Source: an uncultured Candidatus Binatia bacterium (GTDB lineage Bacteria > Desulfobacterota > Binatia > Bin18). From it: 64,000 bases of DNA. The notes under the pieces were generated by a model, which did not search any database, had not been told where the DNA came from, and saw nothing but the letters and a program-made list of their open reading frames with translations. Location of the stretch: NCBI GenBank assembly GCA_965214605.1, contig OZ243961.1, positions 3,584,001 through 3,648,000 on the forward strand, in the 5' to 3' direction. The position numbers and the translations under genes are program-made. Shown piece by piece: positions 56,478-62,654 of the stretch. Each line of letters starts with the position of its first letter. The first letter of the stretch is position 1.

Positions 56478-58058
56478 GTGTCGCCCTCCCGGCCCCCTGC
56501 CCGGCCGCTCTCACATTCCGGTCTGGTCCGCAAGGGCCGTCCGATCGTCGCTGCTACCCTGCTGAGCCGGCCGTTGGGTTTCGTCCGCGAAGCCGTCCAA
56601 GCCGCTCTGTTTGGCGCCTCACGGCTCACCGACGCGTTTCTGGTTGCCTATAACGTGCCAGAAATGATCCAAACCCTATTTTTTAGCGGCGTGCTGAGCA
56701 ATTTCTTTGTGCCTGTCATTACCCGCTATAGAAACCGGGCGGCCGATCTGAATAAAATTTTTAGTCTGGCCTTGAACGGCGCCTTTGGAATCGCCCTGGT
56801 GTTGGCCGGCGTGTGTTATCTGGCCGCTCCGGCCATCCTCACCGTCGCTGCGCCAGGTCTGGCTGGAGACGATCACCGCCTGGCAGTATTCTTGTTTCGG
56901 TTGATGCTGCCGATGCTGATCCTGCACTGTCTGCTGGCCGTGGTCAAAGGAACGCTGAACAGCTTAGATCATTATGCCATGCCCGAATACGCCGGGGTGT
57001 TTTTCAATCTCGTAATGATCGTGTGTGCCCTGAGTCTAACCGGTTCGTACGGTATTAGCAGCCTGGCTATCGGGGTTGTGGCCGGCAGCCTTGTCCAGTT
57101 GGTGGTTCAAATTCCGGCCCTGGCCCGAGTCGGAATTCGCTATCAACCAAGCTTCACCTTTCGCCATCCAGCTCTGCGTGAGATGGGTGGGTTGGTACTG
57201 GGAGCGTTTATTGCGACCGCGGTCGTGCCGATCAACGCCTTTATTGCCCGTGCCCTGGCCTCAACCCTGGCCGAGGGCAGTATCTCGGCCCTGGCCTATG
57301 CGTTCCGTATCTTCTTGCTGCCGGTGAGTCTGTTTGCCGTGCCGGTGTATACTGTGCTGTTGACCGACCTGTCTGCTGCTCATAATGCAGAGGGGGCCGA
57401 GCAGGAATTTAAGGACAAAGCCACCGCTGGCTTATCCTTGCTGTTTGCGGTGGCCTTACCGGCCACCGCAGTTATCATCGGCCTAGCTACGCCGATCACC
57501 CGCCTGCTGTACCAGCGGGGCCAGTTTATGCACGAAGACGTCGTGTTGACCAGCCAGGCGCTCATGGCTTATGGCATTGGCATTGTTACTTATGGCACTA
57601 GTCAGGTCATGGTCCGGCTGTTCAACGCCACCAAGGACACCCGTACCCCGGCGCTCGTCGGCCTGGCCTCGGTCGGCCTGAACGCTCTTGGCGGCTGGCT
57701 GCTAATGCAGGTCTGGGGCCACTGGGGCATTGCGTTGATGATCTCGCTGGCCTCGGGACTAAACACGCTGATTTTGTACGCCATTTTCCGCCGCTGGCGC
57801 GGCCCACTGAACGAAGCTTTGCTAGTCCGCCGGTTGGTTACCCACTTCCTGCTAGCCGCGGCCTTAGGGACGTGTCTGTTCGTTCTGAGCCAAGGGCTGG
57901 CCACCGCCCCGGGGTCGCTGATGACACCGCTGCACGTGGGACAGCTAGCCGCAATCCTTACGGTCGGGAGCAGCCTGTACCTGGTCTTGGGATTTGTGTT
58001 CAAAGTGGAAGAAGTGCAACTGCTGGGGCGGATAATCAGACGAAAGGTTGTGAGGTAG
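56478..58058 (+). CDS. murJ: Lipid II flippase MurJ
   Basis: LLSR.LGFVRE, DAF.VAY..P, YA.RI..LP, DTRTP; extended -10 TGCTATACT just upstream. Confidence 0.9.
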   Translation: MSPSRPPARPLSHSGLVRKGRPIVAATLLSRPLGFVREAVQAALFGASRLTDAFLVAYNVPEMIQTLFFSGVLSNFFVPVITRYRNRAADLNKIFSLALNGAFGIALVLAGVCYLAAPAILTVAAPGLAGDDHRLAVFLFRLMLPMLILHCLLAVVKGTLNSLDHYAMPEYAGVFFNLVMIVCALSLTGSYGISSLAIGVVAGSLVQLVVQIPALARVGIRYQPSFTFRHPALREMGGLVLGAFIATAVVPINAFIARALASTLAEGSISALAYAFRIFLLPVSLFAVPVYTVLLTDLSAAHNAEGAEQEFKDKATAGLSLLFAVALPATAVIIGLATPITRLLYQRGQFMHEDVVLTSQALMAYGIGIVTYGTSQVMVRLFNATKDTRTPALVGLASVGLNALGGWLLMQVWGHWGIALMISLASGLNTLILYAIFRRWRGPLNEALLVRRLVTHFLLAAALGTCLFVLSQGLATAPGSLMTPLHVGQLAAILTVGSSLYLVLGFVFKVEEVQLLGRIIRRKVVR

Positions 58059-58060
58059 AG

Positions 58061-59624
58061 ATGGCGACATCAACAGCGAAAAGCTCCGAGTCTTCCAACC
58101 CAACCCGCTATTTGGCTCATGTCAACCGCGCTGACAATGGCTTTGCTCTCCACGATTTGGACGAACACCTGCGCGGTGTCGGGAAACGTGCGGAAGAGTA
58201 CGCTTCCGTTTTTGGTAGTGAGGATTGGGCGCGGATAGCGGGGATATGGCATGATCTGGGAAAATATAGCGAGGAATTTCAACGACGGATCAAGTCTGTA
58301 TCTGGTTACGATACTGAGGCGCATCTTGAAGGTCAGGGGAGACGCGTTGATCACTCGACTGCCGGCGCACAGCCATGCAATATCCCAATTCGGGCTGCGT
58401 GGACGGATTTTGGCCTACCTCATTGCCGGCCATCACACTGGCCTACCAGATTGGCACACAAGTGAGACTGCCGGTGCAGCCTTAAAAGCACGGCTGGATG
58501 ATGGCAGCCGCCTCAAACGGACGCTGTGTCAACCAATCCCCCTGGATATTCTTTCACAGCCTAAACCTGAGAGTGATTTACTGGGAAAAGCCGAAGGCTT
58601 CGCCTTGTGGATACGCATGTTATTTTCCTGTCTGGTAGACGCGGATTTTTTGGATACCGAAGCATTCATGGACACGGGAAAAGCTGCGCAGCGTAAAGAC
58701 AATCTAACGATTCCAGACTTGTTGTCGCGTTTTGATACCTTTATGGAGGAAAAATTTTCAGAGGTCCCCCATACACGGCTGAACCGTATTCGTGCCGCTG
58801 TGCTTCGGCAGTGTCGTGACAAGGCACACGAAGCACCTGGACTGTTTTCTTTGACCGTTCCCACAGGCGGGGGCAAGACGCTGTCGAGCCTCGCTTTTGC
58901 TCTGGAGCACGCGAGGTATCACGATAAACAGCGGGTGGTCTATGCAATTCCCTACACTAGTATTATTGAGCAGACCGCTGACGTTTTCCGCGACATATTT
59001 CCTGATGCGATAGTTGAACATCATAGTAATCTCGACCCCGAAAAAGAAACGGTGAAAAGTCGCCTGGCGGCAGAGAATTGGGATGCCCCTTTGATCGTGA
59101 CTACTAACGTTCAGCTTTTTGAGTCGCTGTTTGCCTCCAGAACTAGCCGTTGCCGCAAGTTGCACAACATCGCGAATAGTGTGGTGGTACTCGACGAGGC
59201 GCAGCTTCTGCCGCCCGAGTTCTTACAACCAATTCTCGACGTTATGAATCTGCTCGTGCGCTACTACGATGTCACCTTTGTAATATCGACCGCGACCCAA
59301 CCGGAGTTGGGTAAGCTGGAAAGTTTTCAACAGAAGAAGATCCGTGGTCTTGATGGGACGCGTGAAATCATCAACGACCCGGATAGACTCTATCGTGATT
59401 TGGATCGCGTCACTTTTTCAATGCCAAAAGACTTCCAGCAAAGGCAGAAATGGGACACTATCGCTCTCCAGATTCAGCAACATCCTTCCGTGCTAGCGGT
59501 GGTCAACTCGCGTACAGACGCACGCGAACTCTACCGGCGTATGTCTGAAGGGGCGATTCATTTATCAGCCCTCATGTGTGGAGAGCATCGCTCGCGTGTC
59601 ATCGCCCATATCAAACGGCGGTTG
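58061..59624 (+). pseudogene. cas3: Type I-C Cas3 (HD nuclease-helicase), frameshifted and 3'-truncated
   Basis: YLAH, HL, WHDLGK, DHSTAGA | +1 shift near 58373 | GHH.GLPD, LVDAD.LD, VPTGGGKT, DEAQ, STATQP; ends at EHRSRVIAHIKRR. Confidence 0.93.
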
Positions 59625-59890
59625 CCGAGCGTCTAGCATTGACCCTGATTAACCGTCGGCAGATCACTGCCACACATTTTGTCAGGCGTCCAGGCGGGGC
59701 TGTGTCCCTGACCGACGACGGACGAAAAGAGGTCATTGTCGCGTATCAGAAACGCAAACAGGAAGAAGTCCAGCATGCTGTCCTGGAACAGAAAGTGCAG
59801 GTTGGGATGATTCCCCATGTCCAGGCCCGTTTACTGGCACGGCTATTGCGCGGAGATATAGAAGATTACCTGTCTTTCATGTACCATTAA
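59618..59890 (+). pseudogene. cas1: C-terminal fragment of type I-C Cas1
   Basis: AERLALTLINRRQ..GAV.L..DGRK..YQKRKQEE..H..QARLLAR.LRGD...Y. Confidence 0.9.
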
Positions 59891-59919: not shown

Positions 59920-60211
59920 ATTCAGGTCTTAGTCGCCTATGATGTGGCAACGGAAAAGGACGCTGGCAAGCGACGGCTGCGGAAGGTCGCACAGGTGGTA
60001 TGCAAGAACTTCGGCCAGCGGGTACAGTATTCTGTCTTTGAATGCACGGTCAATTAGGTGCAGTACGAGCGCTGGTTCAGGAGCTTGTCAGGTGTATCAA
60101 CGAAAAGGAGGACAATTTGCGGATTTATCGGCTGCGAGAACCAAAAGAGCAATATGCCGGCACTTTGGAGTGAACTCTTTGGTCAACTTTGATGACCCGC
60201 TCCTAGTATAG
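59920..60211 (+). pseudogene. cas2: Cas2, inactivated (ATT in place of start, TAG at 60055, frameshifts)
   Basis: VLVAYDVAT..AGKRRLRKVA..C..FGQRVQYSVFEC, then DNLRIYRL and FGV..FDDPLLV in shifted frames. Confidence 0.9.
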
Positions 60212-60453
60212 CAACTATCCAATAAAACGGTCGGGGATTAAAACAAGCAAATACCTAAACAAACGCCTGAGCGCGAACCTGGAGCAATGGCGTAGAAGCG
60301 GAGAGGATCGCGTTGGTTGTAAGCGCTGAAATAATAACGATTTTCTCGTTTTCCTTAATTCCTTCTGGGTAGATGTCAGACCTGTCAGAGAGAGGATCGC
60401 GGAAACGAGGAAAAACCCCTAAGCAGATCAAAGGCTTGGGGGAGGAGCCACAT
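60212..60453 (+). promoter_or_regulatory. CRISPR leader
   Basis: Non-coding, partly AT-rich, GCGCGAACC...GAGGATCGCG elements typical of I-C leaders; between cas2 and repeat 1. Confidence 0.7.
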
Positions 60454-60630
60454 GCATCTGGTCTTCGGGCCGGATGAGGATTGAAACGACGTGAAAGATG
60501 GTAACCCCAACGGTGACCCGCTACAGGCATCTGGTCTTCGGGCCGGATGAGGATTGAAACTTGGTGTTGCCGATCGCGATGGTCCGCCGCCCGCCCGCAT
60601 CCGGCCTCTGGGCCGGATGAGGATTGAAAC
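60454..60630 (+). CRISPR. Type I-C CRISPR array: 3 repeats, 2 spacers
   Basis: 34-nt cores at 60454, 60527 (GCATCTGGTCTTCGGGCCGGATGAGGATTGAAAC) and 60597 (GCATCCGGCCTCTGGGCCGGATGAGGATTGAAAC); hairpin plus ATTGAAAC handle; intervals 39 and 36 nt. Confidence 0.93.
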
Positions 60631-60640
60631 GCCGCGTTGC

Positions 60641-61429
60641 TCAGGCGTGTAAAAACTCACGGACCAGCCGGCTAAAGGCGTTGGGCTTTTCCAGTGGTGG
60701 GCAGTGTCCACACTCGGGCAGGATCTCTAAGCGCGCTCCAGGAATCGCCTGCTGGTAGCGGTGGCCACACTCGAGTGGCACAATTTGATCGTCACGTCCC
60801 CAGATAACCAGGGCTGGCATGCGCAGCCGGGGTAGGAGGCTCGGTAAACTGCGATCATACATATAGGGTTTCCAGCAGTAGCGCACCGCGGTCTCTTGGT
60901 TTTGGACCAGAATATTACGCTCTTCCTTAGACGGTTTATGGCCGAATAGCTCTTCGTATTCGGGCACCTGTTTGGGCTCAAAATACGTCAACTGGCGCGT
61001 GCCCTCTAACCCATGTAGAAAAATATCGGTAATCTCGCCCTGCTGGGGTTGGATGCCGGCCGCATCAACGAGAATCAGTTTGTTAATCAGCCTGGGGCTC
61101 ATGACCGCCATTTCGGCCGCCAGCCAGCCGCCGATAAAGTGGCCGCCGACCGCCGTTTTCTCTAGCCCCAGTTCCTGGAGCAGCCATAGCGAGAAGCGCG
61201 CCAAGTCGATGAAGCTCTCGACCCAATCCGGTCGTTCAGACGCGCCAAAACCCGGCAGGGTCGGCGCGTAGACGGTAAAATGCTCAGCCAGCTGGCCGTG
61301 ATAACGGCGCCAGCCCAGGCTACCCTCACTACTGTGGAACATCACCAGAGGGTCTCCCCGCCCGCCCTTTAAGAGCTGAATTTTCGCTCCGGAAACCTCA
61401 ACGAACTCTTCTTGGTATGGTGTTGACAT
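60641..61429 (-). CDS. Alpha/beta fold hydrolase-like protein (LLM-associated)
   Basis: PGFGASE, GHFIGG at the nucleophile elbow, WG.DD, CGH. Confidence 0.88.
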   Translation of the reverse strand: MSTPYQEEFVEVSGAKIQLLKGGRGDPLVMFHSSEGSLGWRRYHGQLAEHFTVYAPTLPGFGASERPDWVESFIDLARFSLWLLQELGLEKTAVGGHFIGGWLAAEMAVMSPRLINKLILVDAAGIQPQQGEITDIFLHGLEGTRQLTYFEPKQVPEYEELFGHKPSKEERNILVQNQETAVRYCWKPYMYDRSLPSLLPRLRMPALVIWGRDDQIVPLECGHRYQQAIPGARLEILPECGHCPPLEKPNAFSRLVREFLHA

Positions 61430-61442
61430 GGGTCTCTTCTCC

Positions 61443-62654
61443 CTATGGCGCTTGCTCAAACGGTCCGGGTAGATCGAGTTCCTGACCCATTTCCCTGATC
61501 GCTGGCAGCACTGCTTTTTCCATCAGCTGCAGGCAACGCATGGTGTCCGGGTGGCTAATTGTGCCGTCATTAGTCCATACGCCTAGGATACCGGGTCGGA
61601 CCTCGGATAGCATACGGCGGATTTTTTTGATAACCGTGTCCGGACTGCCGACGATGACCCGGTTACTCTCGACCACCTTGTCCCAGCCCGCCGCGTCAAC
61701 CCCGCCGTACAAGGGGTCTGGACGCAGCGAGTGTTTGTACTGCTCGATCAGTCGCCGAGTACCCTCACGCGAGTTGTAGCCCGGCGGTGCCATAAAATCT
61801 CCGGGGAGCGGTACACGACCGACGCCCGCGTTGCCGACCAAAAATCCCTCGCCAACCTCATAGGCTTTTTCGTCCGTGTCCTGAACATGAATCCGCACCA
61901 GATAGCCAAAGTTTTGCGGCCCCGGAGTATAGCCGACCTCGGCCGCGGCCTGGGTATAAATTGCCATCATATCCAGGGTGACCTGGGGATCGGTCTCGAG
62001 ATAGACGTACGGATAGTGATGCTGGGCACACCACACCAGGGTCTCGGGACTGCCGACGCCCGGAATCCAGATCGGCGGGTGAGGATCCTGGAGGGGGCGC
62101 TCAAAGGGGTTGACGACTCGGAACTGATAGTGCTTGCCCTCCCAGCGAAAGGGACCCGGCGTGGTCCAGGTCTTAATAACCAGATCGTGGGCCTCTTGGA
62201 AGCGTTCGCGATTGTAGGCCGGGTTGGTGTTGGTCGCCCAGCTCTCAATGCCGGTGCCGCGCACAAAGCCGGAGATCAAACGCCCGCGCGAGATCATGTC
62301 GATCTCGGCCAACTCCTCGGCCAGCCGAATCGGGTTATCAAAAATCGGCAGAGGATTGCCCAACAGCACGATCTTGGCGTGTTTGGTCGTACGGGCCAGA
62401 ATCGCGGCCTCCAAGTTCATGGCAGCACCCATACACGTCGGCGTATTGTGGTGCTCGTTGAGCATCAAGCCGTCAAAGCCAATCTCGTCCGCATATTCGT
62501 ACTCGTCGAGATACTCGTTATACATGTCCGAGCCAAGGCTGGGATTGAAGTGAGAGTTAGGAAAGGTCAGACGTACGGAACTGCGAAAGCTATTCCGTAC
62601 GTCCTCCGCGCTGTATGCCACATAGGCGCGTTCGGTAAACCGCATTAGAAACAT
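61443..62654 (-). CDS. LLM-class flavin-dependent oxidoreductase
   Basis: GFDG..LNEHH, NPIRLAEELA.IDMIS.GR, PLQ.PHPPIWIPG. Confidence 0.92.
   Translation of the reverse strand: MFLMRFTERAYVAYSAEDVRNSFRSSVRLTFPNSHFNPSLGSDMYNEYLDEYEYADEIGFDGLMLNEHHNTPTCMGAAMNLEAAILARTTKHAKIVLLGNPLPIFDNPIRLAEELAEIDMISRGRLISGFVRGTGIESWATNTNPAYNRERFQEAHDLVIKTWTTPGPFRWEGKHYQFRVVNPFERPLQDPHPPIWIPGVGSPETLVWCAQHHYPYVYLETDPQVTLDMMAIYTQAAAEVGYTPGPQNFGYLVRIHVQDTDEKAYEVGEGFLVGNAGVGRVPLPGDFMAPPGYNSREGTRRLIEQYKHSLRPDPLYGGVDAAGWDKVVESNRVIVGSPDTVIKKIRRMLSEVRPGILGVWTNDGTISHPDTMRCLQLMEKAVLPAIREMGQELDLPGPFEQAP

Follow-up and report, generated by a model that had tools for sequence, protein, structure and literature searches.

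Why should the remnant of a type I-C CRISPR system hold, as its most recent memory, a piece of a gene that its own operon lacks? The question is raised by a 64,000-nucleotide stretch of DNA, here called the window, from an uncultured Candidatus Binatia bacterium (assembly GCA_965214605.1, contig OZ243961.1, positions 3,584,001 to 3,648,000 of the forward strand), whose genome (G000) comprises 4.37 Mb in 9 contigs and is 99.99% complete. Toward the end of the window, a type I-C array of three direct repeats and two spacers (60451-60630) lies behind a conserved leader, and a sequence-only reading of the window had noted that the first of these spacers encodes the signature of Cas7c. Comparison with relatives shows that this spacer derives from a cas7c gene, that the genome has no cas7, and that a deletion joined at a microhomology spans the position at which relatives carry the matching sequence. 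The locus is an unusually legible natural record: a spacer as memory, a lost cas7c as its target and the scar left by repair can be read together, with intact syntenic relatives supplying the 'before' state.

The repeat boundaries, together with the alignment of leader and orientation, confirm the extent of spacer 1 and its leader-proximal position. Its codons (GAC GTG AAA GAT GGT AAC CCC AAC GGT GAC CCG CTA) translate in frame as DVKDGNPNGDPL. Relative to the 5' end of cas7c in three genomes of the same genus (G002, G006 and G007), nucleotides 1 to 33 agree at 28 of 33 positions, and all five mismatches fall at synonymous third positions. The Cas7 profile PF05107, run over 61 relatives, returned 17 distinct genes in 16 genomes, seven of which, including all three same-genus genes, encode F-DVKDGNPNGDP-DAG near the N-terminus. 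Spacer 1 matches the relatives' identical-motif genes at 28-29/33, and the range across all loci compared is 24-29/33. The G006 gene scores 412.7 bits on TIGR02589 (Cas7/Csd2, cut-off 182) and belongs to a complete cas3-cas5c-cas8c-cas7c-cas4-cas1c-cas2 locus, in which the Cas5c, Cas8c, Cas7c and Cas1c models, as well as those for Cas4, Cas2 and Cas3, all score above their cut-offs.

Spacers were compared with three I-C cas loci by blastn-short, using 412 control spacers (185 of them taken from I-C arrays of relatives, the other 227 from the remaining arrays of G000). Spacer 1 matches the same cas7c site in all three loci (E 8e-6, 3e-5 and 5e-4), while the best of the controls reaches E 0.002. 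Cas-derived spacers are not a common background here, as none of the 412 controls resembles the I-C cas loci. That the resemblance is due to chance, or the locus to an assembly artifact, is a negligible possibility: an in-frame identity of 11 residues, at one site in three loci and with E values below the best control, argues against the former, and the recurrence of the deletion junction in contigs of three runs, described below, against the latter.

Spacer 1 begins immediately after a Phe codon, which bears out the earlier suggestion that this codon supplies a protospacer adjacent motif (PAM). The three same-genus genes have TTC here, and each of the seven identical-motif genes has either TTC or TTT; within the G006 cas7c, TTC precedes only 1.7% of positions and TTN 6.3%. 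The identity of the I-C PAM is taken from published work on other organisms, in which 5'-TTC is reported from 3,163 protospacers in P. aeruginosa (PMC7913775) and also in Xanthomonas oryzae (PMC8406640). For the lineage itself, a comparison of 185 relatives' spacers with G000 gave nothing beyond 17 nt, and the G002 array, compared with 55 genomes of the family, matched only other arrays and solitary repeats, with no protospacer. The correspondence with cas7c is limited to the first 32-33 nt of spacer 1; its seed region, nt 1-8, is shared without change by G006, G007 and several other cas7c genes. On these sequence grounds, spacer 1 is identified as a canonical acquisition, selected by its PAM, whose source was the 5' end of some type I-C cas7c. 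Type I Cascades, as known from I-E structures, skip every sixth position of the guide (6, 12, 18, 24, 30). Because spacer 1 starts in codon phase, the skipped positions would all lie on wobble bases, halving the effect of synonymous divergence; assuming the I-E pattern, the differences at read positions amount to 4 against G006 and 3 against G007, none of them in the seed.

The array itself is that of a type I-C system in both sequence and position, lying downstream of cas1-cas2 remnants and a leader. Its repeats end in ATTGAAAC, with start-to-start spacings of 73 and 70 nt, and folding gives all three a 9-bp hairpin followed by an 11-nt tail. The Rfam model CRISPR-DR9 matches them on the + strand at 35.2, 25.5 and 24.2 bits (E 2e-6 to 4e-3), values that are suggestive and stay below the gathering score of 45. 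The repeat length of 37 nt was set from these weak matches together with the arrays of G006, G007 and a genome of the same family (G015). The arrays of these three relatives consist of 37-nt repeats with the same 3' end in units of 70-80 nt. Arrays of relatives are far longer, with at least 79 repeat copies in G002, about 130 each in G006 and G007, and 35 in G015. Because the leader, which follows cas2, and the repeats align in the same orientation as in G006 and G007, the array runs left to right and spacer 1 is the newest. Two derived C>T changes, found neither in repeat 3 nor in relatives, are common to repeats 1 and 2, as would fit a copying of the first repeat at the integration of spacer 1. 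A simple consensus scan found no sigma-70-like promoter in the leader, and spacer 2 has no match in G000 (at up to 3 mismatches) or in the I-C cas loci. As a separate observation, repeats 1 and 2 are 95% alike over 41 nt (60447-60487 versus 60520-60560), including the 4 nt before the repeat (GCCA at the end of the leader, GCTA at the end of spacer 1); an off-register repeat duplication at integration may account for this, in which case the true spacer would measure 32 nt and the duplicated unit would be a little longer than the repeat. This is one possible reason for the lack of a cas7c match to the final CTA of spacer 1. Among the relatives, the G007 array (L029) contains three consecutive identical spacers, and the G006 array (L027) two spacers with few base differences, seemingly from one protospacer region.

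The absence of cas7, noted earlier for the locus, extends to the whole genome, as PF05107 has 0 matches in G000; as a positive control, the same profile found matches in 2 of 14 genomes. This result, and the lack of any further copy of the I-C repeat in G000 beyond the three in the array, refutes the earlier suggestion that a second I-C locus acts in trans.

The intact I-C loci of G006 (L034) and G007 (L035) served as synteny references and reveal what was lost. Relative to them, 5,453 bp (G006) or 5,482 bp (G007) are absent at the junction. By the G006 gene order, the lost segment comprises the 3' part of cas3, cas5c, cas8c, cas7c, cas4 and most of cas1, and the protospacer position falls within this segment, with 3,204 nt to one edge and 2,250 nt to the other in G006 coordinates. 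The junction falls within a microhomology of 6-10 bp, of which GGTTGC is exact in both cas3 and cas1 of G006 and 9 of 10 nt agree overall. The deletion spans the protospacer, extends to both sides of it and is joined at a microhomology, a configuration consistent with the action of Cas3. Contigs of public runs were aligned to G006 L034:4440-8100 at 80% likeness, uncovered parts being treated as no finding. The same junction is present in contigs of X1, X2 and X5, which come from two studies and include one run that is possibly the source of the assembly; these contigs leave the G006 cas3 at the same base and continue into the cas1 stub of the window.

What remains on either side of the junction is degraded to different degrees (Table 1). 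The cas3 stub (its first 1.5 kb) retains 83.7-83.9% nucleotide identity to G006 cas3 and carries a +1 frameshift at 58373, and the cas1 stub is matched by PF01867 at G000:C1:3643612-3643752. In cas2, the start codon has changed from ATG to ATT, an in-frame TAG stands at 60055-60057, and there are two -1 frameshifts. Upstream, the murJ-like gene is found in 7 of the 8 genomes of the genus. Substitutions of all the remnants relative to G006 are concentrated at third codon positions, as they are in murJ, and because the divergence is still biased in this way, the decay is young relative to the split from G006. Separately, the substitution patterns of both the cas2 and the cas3 remnants still look selected.

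Table 1. Features of the residual type I-C locus and its neighbors, in window coordinates.
Feature	Position	Strand	Description
murJ-like gene, upstream neighbor	56478..58058	+	81.8% nucleotide identity to G006; adjoins cas3 in G006 and G007; name putative
cas3 remnant, HD and N-terminal helicase part	58061..59625	+	NCBIfam cas3_HD; cas3_core profile 4-246 of 358
Deletion junction	59616..59625	.	inside microhomology CGGCGGTTGC
cas1c C-terminal remnant	59626..59890	+	last ~90 codons, natural stop; TIGR03640 cas1_DVULG profile 249-340 of 340, E 2e-38
cas2 pseudogene	59920..60211	+	aligned to G006 cas2 (TIGR01573 match)
CRISPR leader	60212..60450	+	blocks conserved in leaders of G006, G007 and G002
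Repeat 1	60451..60487	+	two C>T changes in 5' stem arm, common to repeat 2, kept as G-U pairs in RNA
Spacer 1 (anti-cas7c)	60488..60523	+	36 nt; nt 1-33 encode DVKDGNPNGDP; last 3 nt (CTA) unmatched
Repeat 2	60524..60560	+	1/37 nt different from repeat 1
Spacer 2	60561..60593	+	33 nt
Repeat 3, distal	60594..60630	+	perfect 9-bp stem, different loop
Alpha/beta-fold hydrolase gene, downstream neighbor	60641..61459	-	homologue ~11 kb downstream of murJ in G005

We give about an even chance to the account in which spacer 1 directed Cascade-Cas3 against the cas7c of its own operon, leaving the deletion as the scar of the escape; that the resident gene was the target, and that targeting caused or selected the deletion, are both steps that we infer. 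Spacer 1 must have been integrated before the deletion, at a time when the local Cas1, Cas2 and Cas4 were functional, because cas4 and most of cas1 were lost with the deleted segment and the I-C repeat is unique to the locus. The operon would then have had its own cas7c with the same 11 codons after TTC, as may be expected because both are conserved in all same-genus relatives. The new CRISPR RNA (crRNA) would have directed Cascade-Cas3 at this resident gene, whether it had been copied from it or cross-reacted with it. Survivors would have lost target and effector together through a deletion of ~5.45 kb, reaching from the middle of cas3 into the late part of cas1, with repair by microhomology-mediated end joining. 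The neighboring murJ-like gene, which lies 1.6 kb upstream of the junction, probably limited the spread of the deletion and would have kept it small. The remaining cas3 stub, cas1 stub, cas2, leader and two-spacer array would have been decaying since. The sequence-only reading had proposed just such a destruction of the operon by its own Cascade-Cas3; this proposal is reasonable and partly supported, by a deletion over the protospacer that is joined at a microhomology, and its causal step stays conditional.

Laboratory work with I-C Cascade-Cas3 describes deletions that run bidirectionally around the target and are mostly resolved at flanking microhomology, and an editing efficiency that falls near an essential gene (Csorgo et al., 10.1101/860999). 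The G000 deletion resembles these in extending to both sides of the target, in its microhomology junction and in an extent apparently limited by essential neighbors.

Several observations weigh against this account. Unlike the laboratory deletions, which range from 7 to 424 kb, the one in G000 arose naturally, with a cause that can be reconstructed only conditionally, and at 5.45 kb it falls below that range; moreover, laboratory cells most commonly escape I-C self-targeting by losing the spacer through recombination between repeats (10.1101/860999), and here the spacer has been kept. The last 3 nt of spacer 1 (CTA) fit no cas7c seen, the I-C genes having GAY there. The lesions are unevenly spread, with four inactivating ones in the 292 nt of cas2 versus one in the 1.5-kb cas3 stub, and the actual order may depart from that of the simple account. 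Loss of I-C systems is common in the genus without any anti-cas trace: four of the seven other species are without Cas7, and in one genome, G004, all that is left is a solitary I-C-like repeat, ~9.1 kb downstream of murJ. With the target lost, no identity between the spacer and the cell's own cas7c can be demonstrated. Lastly, the best match anywhere is a plasmid cas7c of Allomeiothermus silvanus (NC_014213.1; 30/33 with the base before the spacer counted, 90.9%, E 1e-3), and metagenome-assembled genomes of Planctomycetota and Zoogloea reach 28-29/33, equal to the same-genus genes.

These last matches bear on a rival account that we consider possible but unlikely, in which the spacer came from a foreign donor (a plasmid, an integrative element or a related strain), the resident gene was not effectively targeted, and the operon was lost by an unrelated microhomology deletion. 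I-C systems do ride mobile elements, as reported for pKLC102-type elements of P. aeruginosa (PMC7913775). Five of the nine plasmid matches to spacer 1 lie in genes annotated as cas7c, no better match comes from the chromosomal genes of the same genus (28/33), and the frequency of I-C loss in the genus fits a loss unrelated to the spacer. Against a foreign donor, no perfect or near-perfect source was found in the collections searched: the exact 32-mer of spacer 1 has 0 matches in viral, genome and metagenome contig collections, none of 400 other genomes of the class holds it at up to 3 mismatches, and phage records gave four chance matches, none in a cas gene. The conservation of the first 8 nt of the spacer means, in addition, that a foreign-derived spacer would probably hit the resident gene too, so that this rival merges with autoimmune loss of the operon. 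It also leaves as a coincidence that the remembered gene lies inside the one segment that was deleted.

Assigning the donor by nucleotide identity was tried and rejected: the cas7c motif is so conserved that such identity tells nothing about phylogeny, with genes from distant phyla scoring 28-29/33 like those of the same genus. Likewise, the differences from G006 at 5 of 11 wobble positions agree with the ~31% divergence of the cas3 stub at third positions, and agree equally with a foreign donor. The sequence-only reading had expected relatives to show a near-perfect match behind TTC or TTT if the spacer was self-targeting, and plasmids or phages a better one if it recorded a conflict between CRISPR systems. 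The relatives did supply the TTC, with 5 of 11 synonymous positions different; a plasmid cas7c did rank slightly above the same-genus genes, with no cas match in phages; neither comparison produced a near-perfect match. In G000 itself, spacer 1 at up to 3 mismatches occurs only as the array copy, and because its target is no longer in the genome it is not self-targeting today by the usual definition.

Closer relatives of the locus were sought with the cas3 stub as query; metagenome contigs reached only 56-60% amino acid identity, and among genome contigs none was closer than G007 (81%). Intact I-C relatives co-occur with the G000 lineage, as follows from contigs of two runs. X1 has contigs with ~81% identity to G006 that lie over the 5' end of cas7c with the 3' end of cas8c, and over cas5 with the 3' part of cas3, at a depth of ~7 versus 5.9 for the deleted form; in X6, small low-depth contigs cover parts of the deleted segment.

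The lesions of the remnants bear on a second rival, which we regard as rather improbable. Here interference was already dead, for instance through the +1 frameshift in cas3, while adaptation still worked; a self spacer taken from DNA near the array would have been harmless, and both the deletion and the remaining decay would have come about neutrally. Naive adaptation in the absence of interference samples the chromosome in E. coli, with a hotspot near the array, and the cas3 frameshift, together with several independent lesions at the locus, would fit such a history. The order of the lesions, however, cannot be read from one genome, and the small neutral divergence of the remnants implies that all lesions are recent and could have arisen in any order. 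A local hotspot would still leave cas7c a small target, and a deletion that spans exactly the interference genes is left unexplained.

A third reading concerns what happened after the deletion and has precedent in E. coli. There, the residual I-F arrays CRISPR3 and CRISPR4 carry spacers that match cas1, cas3 and csy2 in all genomes without those genes, and two readings were offered: such spacers selected for loss of the cas genes, or the arrays act as an 'anti-CRISPR' that bars their re-entry (Touchon & Rocha 2010, PMC2886076). Such arrays block plasmids with I-F cas genes (Almendros 2016, as described in PMC8616872 and PMC7145637). By analogy, and irrespective of where its spacer came from, the G000 array could have been kept by selection to block I-C re-invasion, since an incoming system would cut its own cas7c; we think this doubtful. 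Besides the E. coli model for orphan arrays, the leader and three foldable repeats are intact, and only two spacers remain versus at least 79 to about 130 repeats in relatives, one of the two being anti-cas. The target is also the most conserved motif of Cas7c, with a conserved Phe codon to supply the PAM. The key E. coli argument, conservation across lineages, is missing here: spacer 1 occurs in a single genome among the 55 of the family and the 401 of the class, with 0 of the 54 and 0 of the 400 others. No promoter-like site was found in the leader, expression of the array is hypothetical, and the survival of two spacers could be chance. It is similarly doubtful that the array serves as a maintained, broad-range 'vaccine' that would turn I-C operons with compatible repeats against their own cas7c. 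A pattern of repeat plus motif gave one match in the window, 0 in viral contigs and, among the 55 family genomes, a match only in G000 (0 of the 54 others). As a side observation, the form that this anti-cas7c spacer takes can be written as a degenerate signature, GAYGTN...AAYCCNAAYGGNGAYCC, directly after the repeat.

The case belongs to a known phenomenon, that of anti-cas spacers and CRISPR autoimmunity, and reveals no new mechanism. G000 displays the hallmarks of an anti-cas spacer, namely a match to a cas gene of its own subtype, absence of the cognate gene, and a PAM in the targeted genes, and like the E. coli I-F arrays it combines a short residual array with a spacer against a cas gene that the genome lacks. 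Unlike them, it is of subtype I-C and comes from an uncultured lineage far from Enterobacteria, its target is cas7c rather than cas1, cas3 or csy2, and its operon is not cleanly absent, since a scar with cas3 and cas1 stubs brackets the target. Unlike the species-wide E. coli spacer, moreover, that of G000 is not conserved across lineages. Searches of an open-access library for anti-cas spacers listed no example from an I-C system. The locus adds a type I-C case, from an unrelated and uncultured lineage, to the anti-cas phenomenon known from E. coli I-F, and offers a test case for whether anti-cas spacers drive the loss of cas genes and later guard against their re-acquisition.

The idea of CRISPR autoimmunity accompanied by loss or degradation of cas genes is said to go back to Stern and colleagues in 2010. 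Self-targeting spacers are reported to be enriched at leader-proximal positions, some of them with incomplete systems (Nobrega et al. 2020, PMC7708048). Like such cases, G000 has a leader-proximal spacer and a degraded cas locus, with deletion as the probable route of escape; unlike them, its presumed target is a cas gene and not a prophage.

Elsewhere in the genus, the same chromosomal site has other contents. In G005, the homologue of the hydrolase gene lies ~11 kb downstream of murJ, with unrelated DNA and no I-C genes between them. The solitary repeat of G004 (L083, G004:C4:183000-195100, reverse strand) reads ...GAGGATTGAAAC, without a spacer and without cas genes. Between it and murJ lie four open reading frames of 293-654 aa without a Pfam match, a class-V aminotransferase, and a GmrSD_N (DUF262-type) restriction protein; this site, which holds the I-C locus in G000, G006 and G007, looks like a variable or defense island. 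Between G006 and G007, cas7, the C-terminal part of cas1, and cas2 differ by 6-8% and the N-terminal part of cas3 by 17%, and the modules of the operon may have different histories, as far as sequence divergence can tell. One variant of the target gene was also observed: the cas7c of G020:C1:3804134-3804945 (L015/L021), like that of L058, reads FDVKDGNPDAGN, without the NGDP of the motif. The Pfam match of the G020 gene is split in two pieces, and it may be a broken or variant cas7c.

G000 is otherwise well supplied with CRISPR content of other kinds. It has at least four other arrays, with 17, 25, 97 and 76 repeats, in addition to 17 repeats on contig C2, representing three other repeat types. 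Eight Cas1 matches were found in all, including at least four other Cas1 genes beside arrays of different repeats, and a second isolated Cas1 C-terminal fragment lies at C1:3262730-3262915. Four spacers of the other arrays, located at C1 ~1687757-1689722 and 2301763-2307649, match the chromosome of G000 itself with no mismatch over the aligned stretch, at C1:51258-51299 (42/42 nt), 337619-337648 (30 of 47 nt), 3218149-3218181 (33/33) and 3170433-3170465 (33/33).

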